Positions 50,771 through 64,000 of a DNA stretch of 64,000 nucleotides are shown here, piece after piece. Location: assembly GCA_020436225.1 (NCBI GenBank), contig JAGQYE010000086.1:4410-68409 (forward strand). Direction: 5' to 3'. Numbering within the stretch: the stretch's first letter is position 1; every line of letters starts with the position of its first letter. The stretch comes from Bacteroidota bacterium (GTDB lineage Bacteria > Bacteroidota > Bacteroidia > Chitinophagales > JADIYW01). The notes beneath the pieces are model-generated. The model was not told where the DNA came from and did not search any database. It saw only the letters and a program-made list of their open reading frames with translations. The translations under genes were made by a program, and so were the position numbers.

Positions 50771-52746
50771 TTTAATTGATTTTGATTTTTTGAATAATGA
50801 TATATAATTGAAATTGCATAATGACGTAATGGTTGTGCATACGAGCGAATTGATTCATAAGCTGTATTGGTTATATTATTTATTTTAAATAAAAATTGAA
50901 GTGTATGTTGGTGTTGAATTGTTGCCTTAAAGTTGATATATACATCTAATAAATGATATGGTTTAAGTGCATAGATTTCTATATTTTCTTCATCAGTATA
51001 ACGTTTAGACATGGTTGTATAATTAGCACCAATGCCAATATATTTTTGTTCAATATAAAAATTGATTTTCAGTGCATGTTGTGGATTATAACGTAAAAAA
51101 TTTCCATTAATCGAATTGTTAGTTTCGTCTTTTAAAATTAATGCACGATTGAAATCGTAAATGATATTGTATGAAAACAAGAAATTTTGTGCTTGTTTTA
51201 TACTTTGTTGAAGGTTAAAAGTTGCGCCATAAAGCTGAGTGGTTTTTATATTTTTTGGCGACCAGAGCGCACCATAACTCGGAATCCAAATAATATTATT
51301 GTTTATTTTTGAATAGTAAACATCAACACCGAAAGCCAATTTATTTTCCCATATTTTTTCTTGTCTTTTTCTTGATGAAGTAAAAATTCCTGTTTGTTCC
51401 ATGTTTGCCGTCCAACCTGTTTCTGGTGCAAGATTTGGATTTCCACCAGGTATCCAATATCTATCATTCATATCCGGAAAATGATATTTATCGGCATAAG
51501 TAAATTGTACAGTATAATTTATTTTTTTGCCTGTATTAAATGCTGCACTTACGTAAAGTTGCGGTCGCAAATACTTAAATGAAGCAATTGGTTGATTAAT
51601 TTCAAAAGCAGTTTTAAAAAAACGATATTGCCAATTTAATTCAGCATAAACATTGCCTGTATGTTCAATAATTTTTTTTCCATATTCTTTTACACTGGCA
51701 ACATTCAAATTATAGGTATAGCCGGTTTTCAAAGTAAGATGATATGCGAAAGAATCTGAATAATTTAATGCGTTAGAAAATCTATTAGAAATATATTTTG
51801 AATCAATAAACAAAAAAGTATCTGTTGGCAAACGCTTATCTGTATATTTCATATAATCGTATGCATGAGAAAATGAGAAATCCAAAATATTTTCTTTGAA
51901 TTGTTTTTTATAATTCAAGAAAGATTTTACCGATGCATCTTTTTGATATTTGCTGCTTACTTCATTCGTGCCCATAATAGATGGAATTTCTTTATCCTTC
52001 TTGATGTACCAATTTCCGAATGAAAGTTGTTGTTGTTTTTTTAATTGGATATAAATCGAATTAATAGCACTCCAAGCATTAAGTTGATTATGTTTTATAG
52101 TATCTATTGGATGAGAAAATTTATAAACATCGAGATATGGATAATTCAATTTTCCAGCTTGTTGGATAAGTGAAGAATGCCATTGAACTTTATTATTTCC
52201 AGTTCTTATTCCTAAATTATTTTCAAACGATGAAAAATTTTTGAAATTACTTCTATAATAAACATCCAATTTATTTTCAAAATCCGGATTGGATTGAATA
52301 GATAAATTTCCACCAAAATTGCTGGTATTCTTATCTAAAATAATAGCATCTTTTCCATTTAATAAAGCAGGAATCAAAGATAAATCTGCACCTCCTAATG
52401 TCAACGAATTGACATATATACCATTCCAAGTAACACTTGTATGGTCATCATTGCCGCCACGAACAGAAATGGAAGATAAGTTTCCAATTCCATAAGAGTT
52501 TATTTGAACAGGAAAAAAATGTTGTAATAAGGAAGCAATTCCATCTTGATTAATTGCATTGTTTAATTCATTTGACTTTATTTTATTAAGATTGTCTGTC
52601 TGTGCGAAATAGTGAATCGGCTTTTCTACAATTAAAATACTATCTAATTGATGTGCTGATGAATCGATTTTTTGCTGCGCATAAACAACATTAGACATCC
52701 ATAAAAATGAAATAAAAACAAACGTAAATTCTTTTAATCTCTTCAT
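50767..52746 (-). CDS. btuB: TonB-dependent receptor, BtuB-like (cobalamin-riboswitch controlled)
   Basis: Signal peptide; plug motifs (SISVRGG, TWNGIYVN); 22-strand-size beta region. The cobalamin riboswitch lies directly upstream. Confidence 0.7.
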   Translation of the reverse strand: MKRLKEFTFVFISFLWMSNVVYAQQKIDSSAHQLDSILIVEKPIHYFAQTDNLNKIKSNELNNAINQDGIASLLQHFFPVQINSYGIGNLSSISVRGGNDDHTSVTWNGIYVNSLTLGGADLSLIPALLNGKDAIILDKNTSNFGGNLSIQSNPDFENKLDVYYRSNFKNFSSFENNLGIRTGNNKVQWHSSLIQQAGKLNYPYLDVYKFSHPIDTIKHNQLNAWSAINSIYIQLKKQQQLSFGNWYIKKDKEIPSIMGTNEVSSKYQKDASVKSFLNYKKQFKENILDFSFSHAYDYMKYTDKRLPTDTFLFIDSKYISNRFSNALNYSDSFAYHLTLKTGYTYNLNVASVKEYGKKIIEHTGNVYAELNWQYRFFKTAFEINQPIASFKYLRPQLYVSAAFNTGKKINYTVQFTYADKYHFPDMNDRYWIPGGNPNLAPETGWTANMEQTGIFTSSRKRQEKIWENKLAFGVDVYYSKINNNIIWIPSYGALWSPKNIKTTQLYGATFNLQQSIKQAQNFLFSYNIIYDFNRALILKDETNNSINGNFLRYNPQHALKINFYIEQKYIGIGANYTTMSKRYTDEENIEIYALKPYHLLDVYINFKATIQHQHTLQFLFKINNITNTAYESIRSYAQPLRHYAISIIYHYSKNQNQLK

Positions 52747-52788
52747 ATCAATAAATGTTTCCTCAGAACATTTTCTTTATTTATGAAA

Positions 52789-52967
52789 ATTGGCAGGTCT
52801 TCTGACTTACACTTTACTGAAACCTTCCCGTTATTTTCAAACAGTGGTTGTAGCGTTCAGTGCCGATTAATTAAAAACTATTATTCGGCGTGCTTACAGC
52901 AACTGGGATTGTACAAGACTTTCACTTGTTTCCCTTTTAATTTCGGAAAAAACCGAAAACCAAATCT
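52789..52967 (-). promoter_or_regulatory. cobalamin (B12) riboswitch
   Basis: The minus-strand RNA contains AGGGAA, GUGAAA, GCUGUAA, CCACUG...GGGAAGG and the B12 box AGUCAGAAGACCUGCC. P1 candidate UUGG/CCAA. A hairpin at 52753-52773 sits 6 nt before the AUG. Confidence 0.88.
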
Positions 52968-53070
52968 TCGATGCAATATTACAATTTAATTTTTACAACT
53001 GCTGTTGAATAATGTAAACTTAAAATGGATTCAATTGTATCCAAGCACAAAAATCAATTCTGTTCATCTA

Positions 53071-53871
53071 TTATTTTTGTAAAAGAGCTGCTTTTTTCAT
53101 TTCTGCAGCTTGCTCTTCTCCTAAATATTTTTCAATCCAATCGTGGACAATATATATTACAGGAGTAAGTACAATGGCGACTATAAACTTATAAATGTAA
53201 TTTCCTATACAAATAGACATAACCAAAGCAAATGGCCAAGCTTTTCCGTTTGCATCGCTAATATATTTTGGATATAAATAGAAAGCAATCATCAACACCA
53301 CAAAGCTGTCTATAAATTGAGAAACAATCGTTGAACCTGTGGCACGTAACCAAATCATTTTTTCGCCACTCCATTTTTTTATTTTCTGAAATATTATTAC
53401 ATCAACAATTTGTCCAAGCATAAATGCAATTAGAGAACCCAAAATAATGGCAATACCTTGTCCGAAAATTTGTGCAAATGCCGATTGCATATTGTTTACA
53501 CCTTGTTCCATTTTCGAAGCTGGCCACCAATCTGCCGGCACTAAATGGATAGCAAAATAGTACATCAAAAATGCATAAGCCAACAGTGAAACTGTTAAAT
53601 ATGATAGAAACTGAACGCCTTGTTTTCCGTAATATTCATTAATTATATCAGTCATAATAAATACAACAGGCCAAAGTAAAACACCGGTTGTTAAGCTGAA
53701 TGAAAAATCATTTCCGAATAAAGGAATTTTAAAAGGTTCTATTCCTAAAGTACGTTCTAAAGAGAAAATTTTGACACCAATTACTTCAGCAATAAACGCA
53801 TTGGCAATGAAGAATCCACCTAAAAGAATAAATAATTTTGTGGATTTATTATTAATGATGTTTTGAATCAT
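53071..53871 (-). CDS. yhhQ: queuosine-precursor transporter (YhhQ/DUF165 family)
   Basis: 266 aa, polytopic; VLLWPVVFIMTDIINEYYGK and SQFIDSFVV motifs. Confidence 0.8.
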   Translation of the reverse strand: MIQNIINNKSTKLFILLGGFFIANAFIAEVIGVKIFSLERTLGIEPFKIPLFGNDFSFSLTTGVLLWPVVFIMTDIINEYYGKQGVQFLSYLTVSLLAYAFLMYYFAIHLVPADWWPASKMEQGVNNMQSAFAQIFGQGIAIILGSLIAFMLGQIVDVIIFQKIKKWSGEKMIWLRATGSTIVSQFIDSFVVLMIAFYLYPKYISDANGKAWPFALVMSICIGNYIYKFIVAIVLTPVIYIVHDWIEKYLGEEQAAEMKKAALLQK

Positions 53872-53950
53872 ATATGATAAATATTAGTTCCTGAAAATCC
53901 AAAAGTAACCATTACTTAGGATTTCCAATTATTTTTGAAAATAATTTTTG

Positions 53951-53958
53951 TATTTTTG
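53951..53958 (+). promoter_or_regulatory. TAnnTTTG -7 box
   Basis: TATTTTTG ends 14 nt before ATG 53973. Confidence 0.45.
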
Positions 53959-53972
53959 TGTAAATCTCCAAC

Positions 53973-55448
53973 ATGAAAAAGATTACTTTTTTAATATTAT
54001 TATGCTTGTCAGTTTTTGTTATTCAAGCTCAAGAAATAATAAATAGATGTGCTTTAGATGAGATAAATCTACAAACTTTACAAAACAACCCTGAAATTGC
54101 TGAATCTTTTAGAGCACAAGTTCAAAATAGAATTCAAGGAGTTGCTTATGACAGTTCTATTGCCAATACCGATACAACCTACACCATTCAGGTAGTGGTA
54201 CATGTGGTGTATTTGAATGATAATAAATACGAAAATATTCCGGACAATATTATCCAATCAGAAATTGATGCTTTAAATAGAGATTATAATTTATTAAATG
54301 AAGACACCATCAATTTGCGTCCGTTTTTTATTCCGTTTAGAGGCAACGCTAAAATTAAATTTGAGTTAGCTAAAACAGCTCCGAACGGCGCTCCTACTAA
54401 CGGAATTACAAGAACACTAGGGAAATTGGGCAACTTGAGCGGTTGGGATCCACTTAGTACAATTTTATGGACAGCTTTAGGCATCGAACCATTAAAGGAA
54501 GACTTTTTCTTATTAACAGGCTCAACCGGGAAATCTCCTTGGCCTGCTAAAAATTACTTAAATATATATGTTTGTGATTTGAACTATGCCAATAGAAAAT
54601 GTAAAACTTGTTTGACATTATGCGATACTTGCGGTGCTTTAGGTGGTTTTGCTTATCCTCCATCTAATGCTATAAACTGGGGTGCTTTGGCATTAGACCA
54701 TGGTAAAAATGACGGCATTGTTATCGACTTCCGCTTTTTTGGTGAAAATAATTGGTATGCTCAAGATTCTACTTCACAACGCTTTAGAGATTTTTATTCA
54801 AAAGGTAGAACAACCGTACACGAAGTTGGACACTATTTAGGGTTACAACATTCTTGGGGAAATGTTTTGCCTTTGCCAGGATTTGATAATGGCTGTGAAA
54901 TCGACGATTTTATGGATGATACGCCGGAAGAAGAACAAGCATTTGCTAATAACTTAGTACATGGTACTTTAAACCCATGTGATACTTCTGTTAATACATG
55001 TAATAAAAATTATTTAGGTAGAGATTGGCCGGATATGTATGAAGATTATATGGATTATTCCACCGATTTATGCTATAATTTATTTACCAAACAACAAGTC
55101 AACATAATGCGTTATAATTTGCTTACAAGAAGAAGTGGAATTATTACAAAAAGAGAATTAACGCCATCAACTACAACAGCCATTCGACCAACATCTTTTG
55201 AGAAAGTTGGCATCTCTATATTTCCAAATCCAGTGAAAGATGAGTTAGTTCTTCAAAGCAGAATTAAAAATTCTAACGACTTACAATTACAAATTTCTGA
55301 TATAAACGGAAAAGTTCTAATTCAAGACAAAATAGGCAAAAATATAAATGAACATCATGTAGATATGTCTAAATTGGCTGCTGGATTATACTTAATACGT
55401 TTGTCTAATAAAGAATTTACCGCAACTGAAAAGGTAGTAAAACAATAA
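53973..55448 (+). CDS. secreted zinc metalloprotease, M43 (pappalysin/cytophagalysin-like) with T9SS sorting domain
   Basis: HEVGHYLGLQH zinc site; signal peptide; C-terminal ISIFPNPVKDELVL...GLYLIRLSNKEFTATEKVVKQ. Confidence 0.85.
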   Translation: MKKITFLILLCLSVFVIQAQEIINRCALDEINLQTLQNNPEIAESFRAQVQNRIQGVAYDSSIANTDTTYTIQVVVHVVYLNDNKYENIPDNIIQSEIDALNRDYNLLNEDTINLRPFFIPFRGNAKIKFELAKTAPNGAPTNGITRTLGKLGNLSGWDPLSTILWTALGIEPLKEDFFLLTGSTGKSPWPAKNYLNIYVCDLNYANRKCKTCLTLCDTCGALGGFAYPPSNAINWGALALDHGKNDGIVIDFRFFGENNWYAQDSTSQRFRDFYSKGRTTVHEVGHYLGLQHSWGNVLPLPGFDNGCEIDDFMDDTPEEEQAFANNLVHGTLNPCDTSVNTCNKNYLGRDWPDMYEDYMDYSTDLCYNLFTKQQVNIMRYNLLTRRSGIITKRELTPSTTTAIRPTSFEKVGISIFPNPVKDELVLQSRIKNSNDLQLQISDINGKVLIQDKIGKNINEHHVDMSKLAAGLYLIRLSNKEFTATEKVVKQ

Positions 55449-55491
55449 ATTCATAGTCATATTAATAACAATACTTTAAGTATTTGTGGAT

Positions 55492-55523
55492 AAGTCAATA
55501 GCGTATTGACTTTAATCTTTATT
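55492..55523 (+). terminator. possible terminator after the protease gene
   Basis: AAGTCAATA-GCG-TATTGACTT followed by TAATCTTTATT (weak T-run). Confidence 0.4.
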
Positions 55524-55578
55524 AGTTGTAACTTCGTATCATGCGTAAATATCATTTTTTGCTTTTTAAAAATAATAT

Positions 55579-57354
55579 ATGATAAAAATCTACACTCATT
55601 TTTTATTTCTTGGTATTCTTTTGGTTCAATGTTTATCTTCATTTGCCCAAAATGAATTTTACAATAATGGAGCTTTAGTTACCTTAAATCAAGGAAGTGG
55701 CGATGCCGAACCTGTTTTATATGTTAATGGAAATCTTACTAATAGTGATGGACTCCTAAATAATTCCAATAGTTTCCTTCAAATAAATTCAGGAAATTTT
55801 GCAAATAACGTCAGCACTTATTATTATCAATCTACAGGAAAAGAAGTGTTTTCCGGCACTACAGACAATACCATTAGTGGAACTTGGAATGGCACAGCTC
55901 TAAACCGCAACCAATTTTATAATCTTAAAGTAAGTAAAGCAAGTGCAACCGGCGAAAATCTTATTTTAGGTTCGCTTACCGGAAATGTAGCCAATATCAA
56001 TGCTGAAGGAACATTGGAGTTTACCGGTTCTAACGGAATTATCAGAACACAAACTACTTCGGCAGGTTCGCCATATAGCGGAAATTATACCAATGAACTT
56101 TATGTAAGAAACCCTTCAGCATCAGCAATAATTGGAAACAGTACAGGAAGTGGCGCTACAACTAAATATATAGAAGGAAAACTACGACGACAAGTAAACG
56201 GAACAGATACATATTTCTTTCCTATTGGTGTAGCCAAAGCAGGCTTAGATGGTATGGAAGCCTTTTCTATAAAAATGAATAGTCTTTCCGTTTCCGGTAG
56301 CACAACTGGATTATTAGGCTATATACAACCAGCCGGAACACCAAGTATAAATTCTGACTTAATTAGCAACGGTGGCATCTTATTTTATGATATAGGATAT
56401 TTTGTAGGTTCAAATAATAATTTCTCACAATGTGTTGGTGGCCCGGATGGACACGATGATGTTGCTGTCATCAACCAAGCTATTACACACGAATGGATAG
56501 TAACTCCAAATGTTACGCCAACAAGCGTGAACTATAACCTTACCGTTTATCCGGGAAGCAATTTAGACAATATAACCTATGCGGCCATGGGCACACCTTG
56601 CGATGATGTTTATTCACAAGCAAAATATTTGGCGAGAGATGGTCGAATTGGTGGAAATACTGCTGTAGGACCAACAGTCAATTACTGGGTTCCGGGTGTT
56701 TATGGCTTATACCAATCTCCTACAGGAAATACAATAAGTAGTCAAAATGGTTTCTCTAGATTTAGATTATTTGGTGCTACAGACAATAATACATCTCTTC
56801 CTATTGAATTATCGAGTTTTACGATTACGCCTGTAAATAATGAATATTTTGAGCTTAATTGGCAAACTGCATCAGAATTAAACAACGCCGGATTTTATTT
56901 ACAGAGGAGTACCGACGGATTTAATTTTGAAGATATAGGTTGGGTTGCAGGAAATAGAACCAGCAACACCATAAATAAATACAGTTTTAACGATAAAAAT
57001 GTAGAAGCTAATATTGGCTATTACTATAGATTGAAACAAATTGATTTAGACAATTCGTTTAATTATTCTAATGTTTTATTCGGTAAATTAATTGGCAATA
57101 AATTTGACGTCTTAAATATTTATCCAAATCCGGCTTCTATTAACCCGACAGTTACTGTATTTTCTCCCAATGATGATATTGTAGAAACAACCATTATGGA
57201 TGTTTTAGGCAGGAAGATTAAAACTCAATCTACCAAATTAATAAAAGGCAATAATAGCTTTGATTTACAAACAGAAGATTTAGCTTCTGCTACCTATCTA
57301 ATTAGATTCCAATCTAATAACACAACTGTAACGAAGAAATTTGTAAAAAAATAA
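55579..57354 (+). CDS. secreted protein with T9SS C-terminal sorting domain, function unknown
   Basis: Signal peptide ...SSFAQ. C-terminal NIYPNPASINPTVTVF...ATYLIRFQSNNTTVTKKFVKK. Confidence 0.75.
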   Translation: MIKIYTHFLFLGILLVQCLSSFAQNEFYNNGALVTLNQGSGDAEPVLYVNGNLTNSDGLLNNSNSFLQINSGNFANNVSTYYYQSTGKEVFSGTTDNTISGTWNGTALNRNQFYNLKVSKASATGENLILGSLTGNVANINAEGTLEFTGSNGIIRTQTTSAGSPYSGNYTNELYVRNPSASAIIGNSTGSGATTKYIEGKLRRQVNGTDTYFFPIGVAKAGLDGMEAFSIKMNSLSVSGSTTGLLGYIQPAGTPSINSDLISNGGILFYDIGYFVGSNNNFSQCVGGPDGHDDVAVINQAITHEWIVTPNVTPTSVNYNLTVYPGSNLDNITYAAMGTPCDDVYSQAKYLARDGRIGGNTAVGPTVNYWVPGVYGLYQSPTGNTISSQNGFSRFRLFGATDNNTSLPIELSSFTITPVNNEYFELNWQTASELNNAGFYLQRSTDGFNFEDIGWVAGNRTSNTINKYSFNDKNVEANIGYYYRLKQIDLDNSFNYSNVLFGKLIGNKFDVLNIYPNPASINPTVTVFSPNDDIVETTIMDVLGRKIKTQSTKLIKGNNSFDLQTEDLASATYLIRFQSNNTTVTKKFVKK

Positions 57355-57364
57355 AAATAATCTG

Positions 57365-58879
57365 ATGAGTAAATTTACTTTAATAGTAGCATTTTTGTTG
57401 GTACTAAGTTTTGCCAATGCACAAACAGGAAATGTTGGTATCGGAACGTCAACTCCAGATGCCAGCACTATACTGGATATTAAATCGACAAATAAAGGCT
57501 TATTAATTCCAAGAGTGGCACTTACTAGTACTACAGATGCTACAACAATTGCATCTCCTGAAGTTTCTTTATTGGTTTATAATACTGCTACACTTGGCAC
57601 TTACCCTAACAATGTTGTTCCGGGTTATTATTATAATTCCGGAACTAAAGCATCTCCTAAATGGACTAGAGTTGCCAACCAAAATACAGCTTGGCAAACT
57701 AATGGAAATACGGGAACAACCAATACTGATTATAATGACAATTCTGCCCAAACTAATGATTTTATGGGTACTACTGATAACCAACCGGTATCTATATACA
57801 CAAATTCAAAAGACAACTATAATAAAACAGACATAAAATTATATAATACTACTAATGCAAGTAATGTTGTAGAGACTCCAACGGACATCTTCCACATTAG
57901 AAAAAATGGAAGAACTGGTATCGCTTATCCTGAAATCGTATCTTTTGCATTAGGAAAATATGCCGCTGGTATTCAATCAAAAACAGAGCTCGGAATTCGT
58001 TTAGGTGATGGAAGTACAACAACTGCCGATAAAACAATTATGACATTAAGAGGCGACGGAACAGTTGGTATAGGAACAACAACACCTGCAGAAATGTTAT
58101 CAATAAATGGTACAGCATCTATCACCAGCAATAATACATTAGAGTTTGGAAAAAGTGTTTCTGGTAAAGAATTTAATGCCGGGAAAATCGGCTATCAAAC
58201 GTTTACAACCGGTGCCTTAGATATAGTAGGTGCAGGAACATCAGGATCAAATAGAATAGTGAAAGTTTGGGATAATTTAGTAACTGCATCAAATGTAATA
58301 TCCGGAAAAGGAATTGTATCCGGAAATATTCAAACAAAAACCGGACCTGGAACAGGTTCAGATAATACATGGCATACAGTTGAATTAGATGCCAATTATG
58401 GTGCAATATCCATTTCTGCGTATGCAACCGGCTCCTATTTAGATGGAGATATTAAAATGCAAGGGGTTGAAATTTCCCCACTATTAAGTACTACATCAGG
58501 CTGGTATTCTTCAAATGGAAACTCTTGGGGTTCTAATTCTACTACTAAAGATGCAAGCTCCGGTACTACTTGTGATGGCTGTTCACATCAAGTATATTGT
58601 CCTAATGATTACATAGCTACAGGTTGGCAAGCTTATGCTAATAGCCAATTAGATTATTATTTAAAATTAAGATGTACAAAATTAGATGATGCTTATGCTA
58701 CTGTAGAAAGTGGTGCGGGAGAAGAATCAGTGCAAAGTTTTCCAAGAAGTACAAGCGATAATATTACACACGTAAGTGTATGTCCAACAGGAACTTTTAT
58801 AAAAGGATTATATATATATACTAATTCGTATTTAGATGGTTACCTAACCGTTTACTGTACAGGTATTAAGAAAAAATAA
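57365..58879 (+). CDS. secreted fibre/lectin-like protein, paralog 1 (GNVGIGT module, duplicated 6-Cys tip)
   Basis: Signal peptide ...ANAQ, then TGNVGIGTSTPDASTILDIKSTNKGLLIPRV...LLVYNT...YYYNSGTKASPKW. Internal GDGTVGIGTTTPAEMLSING. The C-terminal Cys-rich unit is duplicated. Confidence 0.7.
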   Translation: MSKFTLIVAFLLVLSFANAQTGNVGIGTSTPDASTILDIKSTNKGLLIPRVALTSTTDATTIASPEVSLLVYNTATLGTYPNNVVPGYYYNSGTKASPKWTRVANQNTAWQTNGNTGTTNTDYNDNSAQTNDFMGTTDNQPVSIYTNSKDNYNKTDIKLYNTTNASNVVETPTDIFHIRKNGRTGIAYPEIVSFALGKYAAGIQSKTELGIRLGDGSTTTADKTIMTLRGDGTVGIGTTTPAEMLSINGTASITSNNTLEFGKSVSGKEFNAGKIGYQTFTTGALDIVGAGTSGSNRIVKVWDNLVTASNVISGKGIVSGNIQTKTGPGTGSDNTWHTVELDANYGAISISAYATGSYLDGDIKMQGVEISPLLSTTSGWYSSNGNSWGSNSTTKDASSGTTCDGCSHQVYCPNDYIATGWQAYANSQLDYYLKLRCTKLDDAYATVESGAGEESVQSFPRSTSDNITHVSVCPTGTFIKGLYIYTNSYLDGYLTVYCTGIKKK

Positions 58880-58896
58880 TAAATTAAAATTATATT

Positions 58897-60534
58897 ATGA
58901 AAAATATATTAATGATAATTTTGTCTTTTCCAACAATGTTCTGTTTGGCACAAACAGGCAATGTTGGAATTGGTACAGCTACACCAAACGCAAGTGCCAT
59001 ATTAGACGTAACATCAACCAATAAAGGAATATTAGCTCCACGTGTTTCTATAGGAGATGTTTCAGTTTTTGGTTTATCAGGAGATACGAAATCCGCTGGT
59101 ATGATTGTGTATAATACCAATACCGGAACTATAGGTGGTTATGGTACTGGATTTTATTATTGGGATGGAAGCAAATGGCAAAAAATTGTAAATGGTTCTC
59201 CAATAAGAGCACAAAATGCAATAAATCTAAATACGACTACGCCTAATGCATCTGCACAATATCCTTATGTTGAATTAGGTGGCGCCTTAATTCGTCCAAC
59301 AACAATATCTGGATTATCATCTACAAATAAATTGAGTTTTACAGGAAGTGGTGTAGATGCCTTTAATGTAGATGGAACAACATTTTCTGTTGATGCTACA
59401 AATAACAGAGTTGGTATTGGTACTGCAACGCCAAGCGCACTATTACATATTAATGTTCCTGCTAACTCAAATAATAATCCTGATGGAAATGGAATATATG
59501 TTTACAATGCAGGAAATAGCGGAGATAATGACGATGCAATTATTACAGCAAGGGTTAATGGTTCCAGTGCAGGTGATCCATTTATTGCATTAGATATTGA
59601 TGGCGTACAAGGCTGGTCTATGGGCGTTGATAATAGTGATGGAGATAAATTAAAATTTGCTAATGCTTGGAGTGACCCAGGCACCAATACTCGAATGACC
59701 ATTCAACCTGATGGTAATGTTGGAATTGGCACAACCACTCCAAGTTATAAATTAAGTGTAAATGGAACTATTGAATCACAAGATTTTACAGGTGCTGGTG
59801 GAAAAAATATACTAATTGGTGATGATGCTTTTCTTTCTGATGTTGATGAAGCTCATACTATTGCCTTAATTAGTAATTCAACTGCTACTTTAGGCAAATT
59901 AAGATTAGGAAGTAATAGCTCAAGTTATATATATGGCAACAATGGCAATTTAGGACTTAAAACAACAACAACAACGCAAGATGTAAATATTGGTGGTAGA
60001 ATGTATATTAGTGATGGTGTTATTCAACGTGGCGGTTCAGCTATTACTGGTACTTCCGATTTAGGTTTATATTCGAGAGTTTCCGGAAACTATATACGAA
60101 TTGTAACAAATGGTGGCGAAGTTAATTTTTATTCTGATGACAATACAGGAAGCAGTGTCAATGTATCTATTTTATCAAATGGAAAATTAGAAGCTAGAAA
60201 AGGATTTTCTACTGAGCGACAAATTAGATTTTATAAAAGAAGTAGAAACAATGGAGGTGGTGGTGTTGATAATTTAGGAAATTATGATTTTTGTTATTTA
60301 GCCGGTGTTGCATTTAGAAATACTGATAGTAATGTTGATGAAGATGATGATTATCAATGTAATGTATATTCGTTAGATATTAATGGAAATGCCGATTATG
60401 ATGAACAAGAATCTACCGACTACACAACTAATTTCGGATACTCTAGTCGCCCTTATTGGAGAATGTACTCTGAATGTTATGCAGATTGTTCAAATTCAAC
60501 GTGTACTGCTATTTGTATAAATTTTGATTACTAA
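58897..60534 (+). CDS. secreted fibre/lectin-like protein, paralog 2 (same N-module, different acidic 6-Cys tip)
   Basis: Signal peptide ...CLAQ, then TGNVGIGTATPNASAILDVTSTNKGILAPRV...MIVYNT...FYYWDGSKW. Two further internal GIGT(A/T)TP motifs. Confidence 0.7.
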   Translation: MKNILMIILSFPTMFCLAQTGNVGIGTATPNASAILDVTSTNKGILAPRVSIGDVSVFGLSGDTKSAGMIVYNTNTGTIGGYGTGFYYWDGSKWQKIVNGSPIRAQNAINLNTTTPNASAQYPYVELGGALIRPTTISGLSSTNKLSFTGSGVDAFNVDGTTFSVDATNNRVGIGTATPSALLHINVPANSNNNPDGNGIYVYNAGNSGDNDDAIITARVNGSSAGDPFIALDIDGVQGWSMGVDNSDGDKLKFANAWSDPGTNTRMTIQPDGNVGIGTTTPSYKLSVNGTIESQDFTGAGGKNILIGDDAFLSDVDEAHTIALISNSTATLGKLRLGSNSSSYIYGNNGNLGLKTTTTTQDVNIGGRMYISDGVIQRGGSAITGTSDLGLYSRVSGNYIRIVTNGGEVNFYSDDNTGSSVNVSILSNGKLEARKGFSTERQIRFYKRSRNNGGGGVDNLGNYDFCYLAGVAFRNTDSNVDEDDDYQCNVYSLDINGNADYDEQESTDYTTNFGYSSRPYWRMYSECYADCSNSTCTAICINFDY

Positions 60535-60563
60535 TTTTTTTCATTTATTATTTCTAACCAGAA

Positions 60564-61961
60564 TTGAAAAAAAAATATTTAGTCCTTTTTCTTATCTGTA
60601 CACAAATTGTAAGTGTATCTGCCCAAAAGTTACATCTCGCTTTCAGCGACAGCATTATAGAAAAGCCATTCAATATTTGGATTAAAACATTTGACAATGG
60701 TGTTTTTTCTATAAAAGATTCCTTTCTTGTAAATAATGAGAATAAACAAAATATCTATTTTAACCTACCAAATTATATTGGCTATATCGAAGTTTTAAAA
60801 GACAATAAAAATGCTAAAAACGGCATTGGCATCATATTTAATCCTAATGAAAAAGATGCTATTTTCTTGTTTAATCAAGAAGATATAAAAAAGAAAAATT
60901 TTCTATTTAAAAACTCGCCTGAAAATATTCGCTATAATATACTGATAGATTATATGGATAAATTCTTTCAGAAATTTGGAGAAATACGTAAACAAAGAAA
61001 TACTTTAAATCCATTTGATTCTTTATATCTCAATAAATTATTACATACAGAAACAAATCAAGATGCGCTGTATAGTGAAATGAATTTAATTGTCGATTCT
61101 ATTTTAAAAGTTGATACTACTTTATTCACAACAAAATTAGCCGACTTATTAAAAACACCTTGTAGTACTTCGCTCCCATCTTACAAAAAATATTTTGACA
61201 ATTTTAATGCTTTATTGCATTATCATTTATTTGATTATGTTGATTTCAACAACGAAAATATATTAAATCACCCGTTTTTTTACGATAAAATTGATCAATA
61301 CTTCAATTTATATTGTAATGACAATAACATCCAAAACGGCATAGATATTTTAATGCAAAAAGCTTCAAAAAATGAAAAAGTAAAATCAGTTGTCATCAAT
61401 TATTTAGTTAGCTATTTCTTATCTAATAAGAACGATGATTTGGTAGCTTATGTATATGAAAAATATGGAGAATTGTGTAGTATAAATTTAGGAGCTAAAC
61501 AGATGAAAGAATTTTCCAATATTGTGCACACACAAGTTGGTTCAACAATTCCGGATATTGTTTTATACGATTCAAAAAACAATATGCAATCTGTACTTCA
61601 AACTGCATCCAAAAATAAATATACTATCGTATATGTTTGGTTGTCATCTTGCAGTGCTTGTAAAACAAAAACTCCAAAATTAGTTGAGCAAACTAAACCT
61701 TACTTAAATAAAGGCTTGAGTGTTTTTTCCATTTCCTTAGATGAAAATAAAGATGCATGGTTTTCATCAATACTTAAATATCAAACTGAGAAATGGACAA
61801 ATGTTGCCGAATTAGTTACTTTACAAAACTCATCTATTTTGCCAAAACTCAATATCCGAGCAACTCCAAAATTATTTATTATAGACAACAAAGGAACGAT
61901 TATTGCCAAAGATTTATACAATGATGAATTAAATTCAGAATTAAAATCCTTATTCAAATGA
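60564..61961 (+). CDS. secreted protein with C-terminal TlpA-like thioredoxin fold (CSAC)
   Basis: TTG start with signal peptide ...VSAQ. About 320 aa of unknown N-domain. The last ~130 aa read YTIVYVWLSSCSACKTKTPKL...SVFSISLDE...ATPKLFIIDNKGTIIAKD. Confidence 0.7.
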   Translation: MKKKYLVLFLICTQIVSVSAQKLHLAFSDSIIEKPFNIWIKTFDNGVFSIKDSFLVNNENKQNIYFNLPNYIGYIEVLKDNKNAKNGIGIIFNPNEKDAIFLFNQEDIKKKNFLFKNSPENIRYNILIDYMDKFFQKFGEIRKQRNTLNPFDSLYLNKLLHTETNQDALYSEMNLIVDSILKVDTTLFTTKLADLLKTPCSTSLPSYKKYFDNFNALLHYHLFDYVDFNNENILNHPFFYDKIDQYFNLYCNDNNIQNGIDILMQKASKNEKVKSVVINYLVSYFLSNKNDDLVAYVYEKYGELCSINLGAKQMKEFSNIVHTQVGSTIPDIVLYDSKNNMQSVLQTASKNKYTIVYVWLSSCSACKTKTPKLVEQTKPYLNKGLSVFSISLDENKDAWFSSILKYQTEKWTNVAELVTLQNSSILPKLNIRATPKLFIIDNKGTIIAKDLYNDELNSELKSLFK

Positions 61962-62443
61962 AAATAATCTTTTCGATACTAATCATTTGTTTTCTTTTAC
62001 CTATTCAAATAAAAGCGTTAGATAATTCAATTTCAACTATAACAAGCATATCAAAAAATGAATTTGACAATATAAAAAACCCGATTATTGGACAAATAGT
62101 TTTAGTAAAAGAAGATGCAACACTATATTATTACAATGGGAAAAATTGGTTGAGATTAAAAGGTGAATGTTTTCCTGAACCTTCTTCTCCAAAAATTGAT
62201 AGTATAATTTTGTCGGGTAATAATACACTCTTTTATTTTAATGATGAAAACAAAACTACACAACAATACCTAATAAAAAATTTAGACTCCAACAATGAAT
62301 ATTTAGTAAAAGAAAGTCCTGCAAAAATCAACTTAAATCTTAAGAAAGGAGTCTATAACTTCACCATTTTAGGTAAAAACGAATGTGGACTTTCCGGTCC
62401 TCGTTCATCAAAAAACATTGTAATTATTGAGGAACAAAAATAA
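61958..62443 (+). CDS. small secreted protein carrying the half-module (..IVLV..D..LYYYNGKNW..) plus an Ig/FN3-like segment
   Basis: 4-nt overlap with the upstream gene; signal peptide; NPIIGQIVLVKEDATLYYYNGKNWLRL. Confidence 0.6.
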   Translation: MKIIFSILIICFLLPIQIKALDNSISTITSISKNEFDNIKNPIIGQIVLVKEDATLYYYNGKNWLRLKGECFPEPSSPKIDSIILSGNNTLFYFNDENKTTQQYLIKNLDSNNEYLVKESPAKINLNLKKGVYNFTILGKNECGLSGPRSSKNIVIIEEQK

Positions 62444-62541
62444 ATTGTTCTAATTCGTTTAATAAATAACCTATAAAAATTATTTTTCAACCATTTTATC
62501 TAAAAAATAGCAAATTTTAATAATAATAAAACTATTTAAAG

Positions 62542-62787
62542 ATGAAGTATTTTACATTATTCTCTTTCATATTTCTTGCAACTAATTTTACCAATGCGCA
62601 AACCGGTAATGTTGGTATAGGAACGGCATCACCCAATGCAAGTGCCATATTAGAAGTAACATCAACCAATAAAGGAATATTAGCTCCACGTGTTTCTATA
62701 GGAAATGTTTCAGCTTTTGGTTTATCAGGAGATACCAAATCTGCGGGTATGATTGTGTATAATACCAAAATGTGTTTATCCAATTAG
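62542..62787 (+). pseudogene. truncated third paralog (signal peptide plus N-module only, 81 codons)
   Basis: MKYFTLFSFIFLATNFTNAQTGNVGIGTASPNASAILEVTSTNKGILAPRVSIGNVSAFGLSGDTKSAGMIVYNT, then KMCLSN-stop. The 3' end overlaps the convergent gene by 12 nt. Confidence 0.6.
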
Positions 62788-63207
62788 GTTCTTAAAAGCA
62801 CTAAACAGCAATACAGCAAAGCCTCCAACTTCACCTATTATTAAAAGATACATTCCATAAGTCGTAATTAAATTGCGTTGCTTGAATTGGTTTTCTGTAT
62901 GTTTCGTTATTCCTAAAATGATGTAAGTAACAATGGCACTTCCAAAAAATAAAATAGGAATTAGTACAGCAAGAATTTCTATAGTTTCAGGCAAAGTACT
63001 TAAATGTGCAAATTCTTTCAACACCAAACAAGCAAAAGCGTACATCAATGCTGCGCGATGAGCAATGTCAACATAAATATGAGCTTGATGTGTCGGACTT
63101 TTCATAATACTGAAATATTTCCAAACACCAGTCAACAATCCTATCATAAAATAAATGCCACAAGCTATTAAAGCAAGCATTTCCGGTGTTTGTATTTCTG
63201 TGTGCAT
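62776..63207 (-). CDS. four-TM membrane protein, hypothetical
   Basis: 143 aa with four hydrophobic helices. Confidence 0.6.
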   Translation of the reverse strand: MHTEIQTPEMLALIACGIYFMIGLLTGVWKYFSIMKSPTHQAHIYVDIAHRAALMYAFACLVLKEFAHLSTLPETIEILAVLIPILFFGSAIVTYIILGITKHTENQFKQRNLITTYGMYLLIIGEVGGFAVLLFSAFKNLIG

Positions 63208-63271
63208 TTTTTATTTTTTTTTGATTTGAATAAAATTAGACAAACTTCATAAATTTGAAATAGCATTTCTA

Positions 63272-64000
63272 CTACATTTTCTCATCATTTATAAAATTCA
63301 AAAATAAATGGAATAATTTTTTAGTTTTTTTGTTGTCATAAACTTGTTCTCCCAAATGACTCACCCATCGAATACCGCGAATAGCATTGCTCACAAAAAG
63401 TTCATCTGCTTGATATAATTCTTGAATAGAAATGGATTTTTCTTCAATTTCCGGAAAATTGTTGAGCAAAAAAGAACGCATTACACCGACAACCGGCGCA
63501 TCTGACAAAGGTGGCGTATAAATCTTATTATTTTTAATCATAAAGACATTATAAATGCACGCATCTGCAAGTGTATTATTTTCATTAAAAACAAAAGCAT
63601 CAGCACACAAGTTGAGCTTGGCATAATTCAAAGCATCATTATATATTTTTCTATCGGTATGTTTTAAATTGGAAAACGTATCTATCTTTTTTTGTTGAAG
63701 TAGATAAGGTAAAATAGGCAAACCTTGCTCTTGCCAAATGTAATTTGCATCTTCTAATTTTGAAAAGGAGAAGTTGAAATTCATTTTACTGTTTATGCTT
63801 GGATGAATTTCCAATCTCAACCGAAATGCTTGCGTTTCTTCTTCTTTATTTTGAATTAAATTAGTGCTAATAAAATTTTCAATCGCATTTCTAATTTCCG
63901 ACTCCGAAAATGGAAAATTTAAAATTGAAAAACCATTTCGTAGTCGATTAAGATGTAACAAAAACAACATCGGTTTTCCGTTTACTACTTTGATGGTTTC
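63272..64000 (-). CDS. class IV aminotransferase-fold protein (aminodeoxychorismate lyase-like), N-terminus beyond window
   Basis: The frame stays open upstream of the track Met to base 64000 (ETIKVVNGKPMLFLLHLNRL, a typical fold-type IV start). C-terminal ELFVSNAIRGIRWV. Confidence 0.65.
   Translation of the reverse strand, partial: ETIKVVNGKPMLFLLHLNRLRNGFSILNFPFSESEIRNAIENFISTNLIQNKEEETQAFRLRLEIHPSINSKMNFNFSFSKLEDANYIWQEQGLPILPYLLQQKKIDTFSNLKHTDRKIYNDALNYAKLNLCADAFVFNENNTLADACIYNVFMIKNNKIYTPPLSDAPVVGVMRSFLLNNFPEIEEKSISIQELYQADELFVSNAIRGIRWVSHLGEQVYDNKKTKKLFHLFLNFINDEKM

Follow-up and report, generated by a model that had tools for sequence, protein, structure and literature searches.

The window, a stretch of 64,000 nt of bacterial DNA, carries an 81-codon ORF (hereafter the stub) between the last gene of a fibre operon and a convergent membrane-protein gene, and the question is whether this short ORF is a working gene, a device for recombination, or the remnant of something larger. 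Public collections list it as a gene under the PF26696 tag, and annotators should be cautious with this label, as the ORF is probably a pseudogene fragment. We favor, with reasonably good confidence, the explanation that the stub is a non-functional relic of a third PF26696 gene, which was patched by gene conversion from the neighboring full-length gene P545 and is beginning to decay. It looks like a real but ordinary gene remnant, that is, genomic debris and not a working device.

Judged from their sequences, P504, P545, and the stub are predicted to form a family of tail-fibre-like (MAT-like) secreted proteins of this Chitinophagales bacterium, and all three bear the PF26696 tag in the protein collection. 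MAT proteins are the mosaic adhesive trimer fibre proteins of Bdellovibrio bacteriovorus (Caulton et al. 2024, PMC10769870; PDB 8OJN, 8ONB, 8OND). The full-length paralogs share with them an architecture of signal peptide, conserved beta-rich N-terminal domain, and unrelated tips, as well as repeated V-G-I-G-T-x-x-P-x-x-x-L loops, and residues 262-307 of P545 show a weak sequence match to the MAT structure 8OJN (E = 0.0094). More than 1400 homologs of P545 were found, most of them tagged PF26696 and many with PF13884, and P545 also matches PHROG tail-fibre profiles, down to E = 1.7e-10. Many relatives of the full-length paralogs end, like MAT, in an S74 chaperone (PF13884), which both P504 and P545 lack. 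Further differences from Bdellovibrio MAT are the N-terminal module, which here is PF26696 and is found in Bacteroidota, and the operon, in which the P504 and P545 genes stand with those of a T9SS-CTD protein and a TlpA-like oxidoreductase. The stub, unlike the MAT proteins, consists of a partial N-terminal module only. Its module was matched by 8610 representative clusters in a search of 1.84 billion representatives; PF26696 was not mentioned in the literature searched.

The features of the locus are listed in Table 1. Together, the spacer and the stub make up a 332-nt intergenic space. The stub begins with MKYFTLFSFIFLATNFTNAQ and its product includes TGNVGIGTASPNASAILEVTSTNK, and the ORF ends in ..IVYNT-KMCLSN-stop with a 12-nt overlap with the convergent gene. 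An earlier note on this DNA had described it as the N-terminal remainder of a gene, equipped with a start codon and a signal peptide of its own, and the ORF, which starts with ATG, bears this out. In the 98 nt upstream of the stub we found neither the Bacteroidota -7 box (TAnnTTTG) nor a sigma-70-like promoter or terminator; the operon and the stub have no terminator between them, and read-through transcription may be possible. The same 98 nt gave no significant match to the DNA that precedes P504, P545, or the paralogs of the sister species G018, nor to the rest of the genome. The last ~30 nt before the stub resemble the T9_591-stop/P504-start junction, although this AT-rich resemblance is unproven.

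Table 1. Coordinates of the stub, the repeat pair, and the neighboring genes in the window.
Feature	Position	Strand	Remarks
P504, first full-length paralog	57365..58879	+	closest relative of the stub 5' end
P545, full-length tail-fibre-like secreted protein	58897..60534	+	PF26696 N-terminal module; likely donor of the tract
Tract copy 1	58990..59120	+	P545 codons 32-75; 68% identity with the ortholog in G018
TlpA-like thiol-disulfide oxidoreductase (465 aa) and 161-aa protein	60564..62443	+	between the repeats
AT-rich spacer 5' of the stub	62444..62541	+	no TAnnTTTG box, sigma-70-like promoter, or terminator
Stub ORF, 81 codons	62542..62787	+	signal peptide and truncated N-terminal module, followed by 5 unrelated codons
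Stub start codon and signal peptide	62542..62601	+	P504 type, not P545 type
Older homologous stretch	62596..62637	+	encodes the conserved QTGNVGIGTxxPNAS motif; differs from P545 at 11 of 42 positions (10 synonymous)
Tract copy 2, within the stub	62638..62768	+	outgroup base at 3 of 6 differing sites; the six differences also in the second strain
Convergent gene for a 143-aa membrane protein	62776..63207	-	stop 7 nt past the tract end; C-terminus length as in the sister species

In an ungapped comparison at a constant offset of 3648 nt, the two tract copies, direct repeats spaced by 3.65 kb, showed 6 mismatches over 131 positions; the longest stretch free of mismatches spans 48 nt (59008-59055). 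Immediately upstream, the homologous 42 nt (58948-58989 in P545) differ at 11 positions, and the counts given for both stretches in the earlier note are exact to the base. Further 5', the signal-peptide codons of the stub and P545 are unrelated (28 mismatches in 51 positions), and past 59120 and 62768 the homology ends abruptly, with identity falling to the random level of ~25%. The same pair was recovered as D2 in a repeat search of the window (173 nt at 90%) and by blastn against the whole genome (E = 7e-63), in which no further close copy was found. Third-codon positions differed at 9 of 13 sites upstream versus 4 of 43 in the tract, and the maximum chi-square breakpoint fell after 58989 (permutation p = 0.003), which is the 3' edge of the older stretch. 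Uniform divergence, named in the earlier note as evidence against its reading, is thus not what the computed alignment gives, as the step is significant (Fisher p = 4.9e-5). Its proposal that the step reflects recombination or gene conversion instead of uniform drift is backed both by these third-codon positions and by the phylogenetic discordance described below.

Within the tract, the stub and P545 are 95% identical, and each is 68-70% identical to G018_508, the ortholog of P545 in the nearest species. 5' of the tract, P545 and G018_508 are 70-78% identical, versus 54-72% for the stub and P545. The positional ortholog in G018 shares 66% amino acid identity with P545. The signal-peptide DNA of the stub aligned locally to P504 with a score of 33 (shuffles 14.6+-2.5, none of 500 reaching it), whereas the score against P545 was 14, which 329 of 500 shuffles reached; it also matched G018_452, not P545. 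The earlier view that the stub signal peptide is unrelated consequently holds for P545 but not for P504, to which it is significantly related. The identity step and the discordant phylogenies of tract and flank indicate that the stub is a mosaic of an old 5' end from a distinct paralog and a young conversion tract, presumably from P545. A one-step template switch copying P504 and P545 pieces together was rejected, since the two parts differ greatly in age (~60-75% versus 95% identity to their nearest sources).

The direction of the conversion, from P545 to the stub, is suggested by the six differing tract sites, where the outgroup base is found in the stub at three and in P545 at none, and by the P545 tract sharing its subtype with the positional ortholog. 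Of the two tract boundaries, only the 5' one has homology on both sides; at the 3' one the stub itself ends, so that the length of the tract and the mechanism are defined in part only. The locus resembles ectopic (interlocus) gene conversion in bacterial multigene families, as it takes place between a gene and a pseudogene or gene fragment nearby: there, too, a short, near-identical, sharp-edged tract lies inside old paralogs, tract and flank have discordant phylogenies, and the donor is separated by a few kb from an acceptor in the same orientation. The locus differs in that a 76-codon 5' fragment lacking any variable region is the acceptor, and in that only a single past event can be seen.

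The stub junctions were reproduced in five independent assemblies. An assembler error would be conceivable at a repeated module, since the genome is a 141-contig draft and the stub site lies 1.7 kb from a contig end. However, the same junctions occur in three metagenome assemblies from different samples and in a second genome, there on a 471-kb contig, at 99.6-100% identity, and the exact stub product is encoded on three ENA metagenome contigs. A chimeric join is refuted by these independent assemblies, and we give it practically no weight.

In the sister species (G018 and L030), the gene order is the same, and 27 nt stand in place of the 332 nt, without a stub. A relative at 81% has unrelated sequence at the site, and the stub was also absent from L031-33 and from the more distant cassette L022/L023. 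A placement of the 27-nt spacer at window positions 62467-62493, from which the left limit of the extra DNA could have been read, was rejected as not significant, since 342 of 2000 shuffles match as well. In the second strain, a deletion of 1 nt (C) at 62627 (+) causes a frameshift, with a stop after 36 codons; this allele is known from one assembly, and a sequencing error is possible because the sister MAG of that project is indel-prone. It is the sole indel in the 17.6 kb aligned between the two strains, and the chance of a random indel landing in the stub is ~0.014. Conservation of the intact 81-codon ORF in relatives, the other observation that the earlier note had named as contrary to its reading, was accordingly not found: the sister species lacks the ORF, and a second strain of the same species carries it with a frameshift.

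These comparisons also bear on how the fragment arose. A possible, though clearly less probable, account is that a piece of ~300 nt, derived from a lost or foreign paralog, entered the short spacer beside the stop of the membrane-protein gene directly, for instance through break repair or transformation, with conversion by P545 following later. It is a variant of the preferred explanation and differs from it in origin only. The 27-nt spacer of the sister species suits such an insertion, as does the lack of a full-length third paralog at this site in any relative compared, and the neighbor's stop codon lies just 7 nt past the point where homology ends, with the neighbor's reading frame untouched. 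However, a donor with a matching 5' half was found neither in the genome nor at the DNA level in 33 genomes of the genus, nor among the 120 best P545 homologs, and neither a donor nor a full-length third paralog was found among the 1.84 billion representatives; a deletion with the same endpoint fits the data equally well. The "deletion scar" of the earlier note is therefore retained in part: the intact signal peptide and the 5' half of distinct lineage fit the remnant of a third gene, but insertion fits as well, and none of the relatives has the full-length third paralog.

Returning to the preferred explanation, the 5' end of a third tail-fibre-like (MAT-like, PF26696) gene would have been lodged 3' of the fibre operon. 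Its spacer, start codon, signal peptide, and first motif would belong to a paralog lineage distinct from both neighbors and nearest to P504, and this 5' part probably diverged while still under selection, as its intact signal peptide suggests. Ectopic gene conversion from the neighboring P545 would have overwritten the adjoining 131 nt, presumably at a time between the separation from the sister species and the divergence of the two sampled strains. Past codon 76 the rest of the gene is missing, having been deleted or never copied in, and the remaining stub would be a partial domain, without its own promoter, in which decay has begun.

The end of the stub lies inside a conserved domain. The stub stops at VYNT, and family conservation runs on to a G.YYW.G..W block (P545 residues 85-95, with invariant W94) that is absent from it. 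An AF2 model places strands at residues 70-73, 85-89, and 94-96, of which the stub would retain the first only; by this model, the best-defined sheet of the N-terminal domain loses two of its three strands in the stub. This truncation weighs against the proposal that the stub is a functional small secreted protein, made up of a signal peptide and the larger part of the fibre N-terminal module and perhaps acting as a cap, decoy, or dominant-negative partner in the assembly or anchoring of P504/P545 trimers. Such a role could draw on the ORF being intact, with its signal peptide, in the window and the three metagenome contigs (it is intact in four of the five sampled sequences, where its start codon is good and its signal peptide canonical), on the lack of a terminator between operon and stub, and on short ORFs with a stub-type module in other genomes. 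Nevertheless, those ORFs of 107-157 aa keep the whole module, and the stub has no promoter box of its own, is missing from the sister species and other relatives, and is frameshifted in strain 2. We consider such a function unlikely.

Minimal efficient processing segments are the basis on which the length of a repeat is judged sufficient for homologous recombination. The pair described here, with 131 nt at 95% identity, a 48-nt perfect run, and direct orientation at 3.65 kb, would be enough for occasional events, and at least one conversion has occurred. The repeats could be a substrate in use, either as a RecA-dependent deletion switch operating in some members of the population or as a conversion reservoir for the expressed paralog. 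As the earlier note had foreseen, recombination between them would remove the TlpA-like (thioredoxin-fold) and 161-aa genes, but it would also take ~86% of the 545-aa gene (everything after ~codon 32-75) and not just its tip. This would be an irreversible loss, not a switch. The undeleted arrangement was present in all five independent assemblies, namely both strains and three metagenome contigs, each with the six tract differences, which in the two strains indicate no exchange since their split. A scan of JGI metagenome contigs for the junction of the stub with the membrane-protein gene gave no hit; these contigs lack the organism, and the result is uninformative on the deletion product.

Viewed as a programmed phase- or antigenic-variation cassette, the locus has a single stub, no recombinase or invertase among its neighboring genes, and no variable region. 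The stub offers 57 conserved codons only, without an alternative tip or any variation worth donating, and, lacking a variable region, it cannot act as a cassette for antigenic variation like those of pilS/pilE or vlsE. The architecture is not repeated elsewhere either, as none of six other short module ORFs, found in other genomes, lies next to a full-length paralog. The suggestion of a "recombination substrate for the family" is not borne out by these observations, and ongoing use of the repeats is a little more improbable still than a secreted function. Orphan C-terminal cassettes in polymorphic toxin loci (Rhs, CdiA) are similar in that a fragment lies 3' of a full-length gene with short homology able to mediate recombination. 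They carry a variable C-terminal end and an immunity gene and have no start codon, whereas the stub is a conserved N-terminal end with a start and no variable part. It is very unlikely that the stub is maintained because it is useful, be it as a secreted partial N-module that is expressed by read-through and caps or interferes with both fibres, or as an arm of a deletion switch. Were the latter true, some cells would irreversibly shed P545 together with the TlpA-like folding helper and the 161-aa protein, which might, for example, allow escape from a phage or predator recognizing the fibre.

As a relic, the stub would be of little importance beyond annotation. It shows that paralogs of a fast-evolving fibre family trade sequence by gene conversion and go through birth and death at the border of a conserved operon. 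The stub also appears to keep an older state of the P545 N-module, which may be of small help in reconstructing how the fibre genes diverged.

The 81-codon stub is a real but ordinary remnant of a gene from a family of fast-evolving fibre genes. The window spans positions 4410-68409 of contig C34 in a Bacteroidota genome (2.69 Mb in 141 contigs), whose close relatives carry the Chitinophagales label in the sources. Ungapped comparison with the two copies offset by 3648 nt reproduced exactly the repeat described in the earlier note, in which 58990-59120 of the full-length paralog P545 and 62638-62768 of the stub differ at 6 of 131 positions, with a longest perfect run of 48 nt and 11/42 mismatches in the 42-nt upstream flank. 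The signal-peptide codons differed at 28 of 51 positions, and past 59120/62768 similarity was random (about 25%). The tract pair was returned as a 173-nt repeat (90%) by an automated repeat search and with E = 7e-63 by genome-wide blastn, which found no other close copy in the whole genome. The stub reading frame was also as reported, ending in IVYNT-KMCLSN-stop. Additionally, an antisense 83-codon ORF mirrors the stub (62532-62783, minus strand), and at this site in a second strain (strain 2, GCA_041393035.1) the gene caller gave a 49-aa minus-strand ORF, not the frameshifted stub; both ORFs are probably spurious.

The gene conversion proposed earlier from the step in identity was supported and sharpened. 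In a maximum chi-square scan, the best-supported break followed position 58989 (permutation p = 0.003), and third-codon differences were found in 9/13 codons left of 58990 vs 4/43 right (Fisher p = 4.9e-5). On the left side of this break, all but one of the 11 differences were synonymous and lay inside the invariant motif QTGNVGIGTxxPNAS. The outgroup was G018_508, the P545 ortholog at the corresponding position in the nearest species (G018). Within the tract, stub and P545 were 95% identical and each was 68-70% identical to G018_508; in the two segments preceding the tract on its 5' side, P545 shared 70% and 78% with G018_508 vs 54% and 72% with the stub. The identity step is a phylogenetic discordance as well, a pattern that uniform drift after a single old duplication cannot yield.

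The stub signal peptide (MKYFTLFSFIFLATNFTNAQ) is unrelated to that of P545. Its DNA matched that of the other full-length paralog, P504 (local score 33 vs 14.6±2.5 for shuffles, 0/500), and that of the G018 ortholog of P504 (2/500 shuffles), and shuffle-tested local alignment gave no match to P545 or its ortholog. The match to P504 was distant, with 58-63% identity across the signal peptide and about 75% across 122 nt, and more distant than that of P504 to its own ortholog (78%), and therefore the 5' half of the stub represents a separate, older paralog lineage. Since a canonical signal peptide and an intact motif are still encoded, this divergence most likely accumulated in a working gene. 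Searches of the best P545 homologs, of 33 genomes from the genus, of the rest of the source genome, and of 1.84 billion representative proteins yielded no donor of the 5' half. The stub is a two-layer mosaic, with an old P504-like 5' end and a young P545-derived tract.

Regarding the direction of conversion, of the six sites at which the tract copies differ, the stub held the outgroup base at three (59056, 59066, and 59094) and P545 at none, and the tract subtype of P545 (PRVSIGNVS.FGLSG...AGMIVYNT) was that of its positional ortholog. From these few sites, we infer conversion from P545 into the stub, which would keep a slightly older P545 state. The same six differences were present in strain 2; therefore, the conversion predates the strain split. 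Relative to the split from G018 it is later: stub and P545 diverge by 4.6% in the tract, whereas divergence between the species is roughly 15% in flanking genes and 30% in this tract.

An assembly artefact was excluded, as the identical arrangement occurs in three short metagenome contigs and in GCA_041393035.1. The former, from different samples, encode the exact 81-aa product and cover the 161-aa gene, stub, and membrane gene at 99.8-100% identity; the latter (471-kb contig L021) is 99.57% identical to window 50897-64000 with the arrangement unchanged. According to this contig, C67 directly succeeds C34, the contig of the window, with ends overlapping by about 334 nt (L021 13229-13562). G018 has the same gene order, but the spacer between the 161-aa gene and the membrane gene is 27 nt vs 332 nt in the window, and the membrane protein C-terminus is of equal length in both. 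A second assembly of the G018 lineage (L030) agrees at this site, a relative with an 81%-identical membrane gene has unrelated sequence beyond that gene's stop, and the more distant syntenic cassette L022/L023 has no stub. The extra DNA is therefore a derived feature of the window's species. The deletion scar suggested earlier is plausible, a full gene once at the site having been lost up to a point 7 nt from where its neighbour stops; insertion there of a fragment of about 300 nt fits the data equally.

Features of the locus, amino acid identity to G018, and isolated module ORFs in other genomes
Feature	Position	Strand	Description	G018 identity
T9SS-CTD 591-aa protein				85%
P504 ortholog				47%
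P545 ortholog				66%
TlpA-like gene				87%
161-aa gene				78%
Stub	62542-62787	+	81-aa ORF	
Convergent membrane gene	62776-63207	-	ORF, 12-nt overlap with stub	86%
Isolated module ORF	L035 5889-6212			
Isolated module ORF	L037 6036-6509			
Isolated module ORF	L038 5825-6262			
Isolated module ORF	L039 5593-6048			

Both full-length paralogs fall into a very large Bacteroidota 'tail fiber domain-containing' family, whose N-terminal module is tagged PF26696 in public collections and many members of which end in the S74 chaperone PF13884. P545 matched PHROG tail-fibre families and, weakly, PDB 8OJN, a Bdellovibrio MAT fibre (PMC10769870). The published MAT architecture (PMC10769870), which the paralogs resemble, combines a signal peptide and a conserved beta-rich N-domain with V-G-x-x-x-x-P-x-x-x-L capping loops and with tips that can be swapped. 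The stub's module is also an internal repeat in giant proteins, up to 30 times; the N-terminal fibre unit of ~57 aa matches 8610 clusters (50% identity) and 30 stretches of P0243 (3903 aa). Family conservation runs about 20 residues past the stub end, through G.YYW.G..W (P545 85-95), with W94 invariant. P545 1-115 was modelled as a monomer with AlphaFold2 at modest confidence (mean pLDDT 71.9), best at residues 70-100 (pLDDT 80-90); of the strands predicted there (70-73, 85-89, and 94-96), the stub retains the first only. By contrast, isolated ORFs of 107-157 aa in other genomes consist almost entirely of a signal peptide and the complete module, G.YYW.G..W included; these may be true small proteins built of the module alone.

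Neither a promoter (Bacteroidota -7 box TAnnTTTG or sigma-70-like) nor an intrinsic terminator was found on the plus strand of 62205-63250. If transcribed at all, the stub would therefore depend on read-through from the operon, whose genes are tightly packed (gaps of 10, 17, 29, and -4 nt), across a further gap of 98 nt. Strain 2 lacks the C of window position 62627, outside any homopolymer (GGAACGG[C]ATCACC), and this loss frameshifts the stub to a stop after 36 codons. This was the only indel in the 17.6-kb strain alignment, besides 70 substitutions, and the chance of a randomly placed error falling in the stub is about 0.014. Since indels are plainly frequent in the sister MAG of that project, the frameshift speaks strongly, though not conclusively, for relaxed selection.

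A 48-nt perfect run within 131 nt at 95% identity suffices for rare RecA-dependent deletion, which here would mean irreversible loss of the TlpA-like and 161-aa genes together with most of P545. Use of the repeat pair as a recombination substrate for the family, the other role proposed earlier, was not supported: a single arrangement was found in all five assemblies, with no tract exchange since the strain split. No recombinase gene lies near the stub, which has no variable segment to donate, and six further short module ORFs, from other genomes, all lack an adjacent full-length paralog.

The order of a five-gene cassette was kept in three species (window 55579-62443, L014 8336-14924, and L022 4572-11500), comprising a T9SS-CTD protein (585-591 aa), two PF26696 fibre paralogs themselves lacking a T9SS C-terminal domain, a TlpA-like oxidoreductase (464-465 aa), and a small protein (135-161 aa). 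The fibre paralogs (window 57365-60534 vs L014 10119-13015) diverged far faster from their orthologs than the flanking genes (47% and 66% vs 78-87%), mainly centrally (21-29% amino acid identity per 40 codons), with better conserved C-terminal ends. In addition, strain differences between window 50897-64000 and L021 were strongly clumped, with none across about 4.8 kb (50962-55800), five in 12 nt (55801-55812), and 25 in 1.1 kb right of the stub (62962-63926) vs six in 3.9 kb to its left, suggesting recombination patches or a mixed-population consensus.
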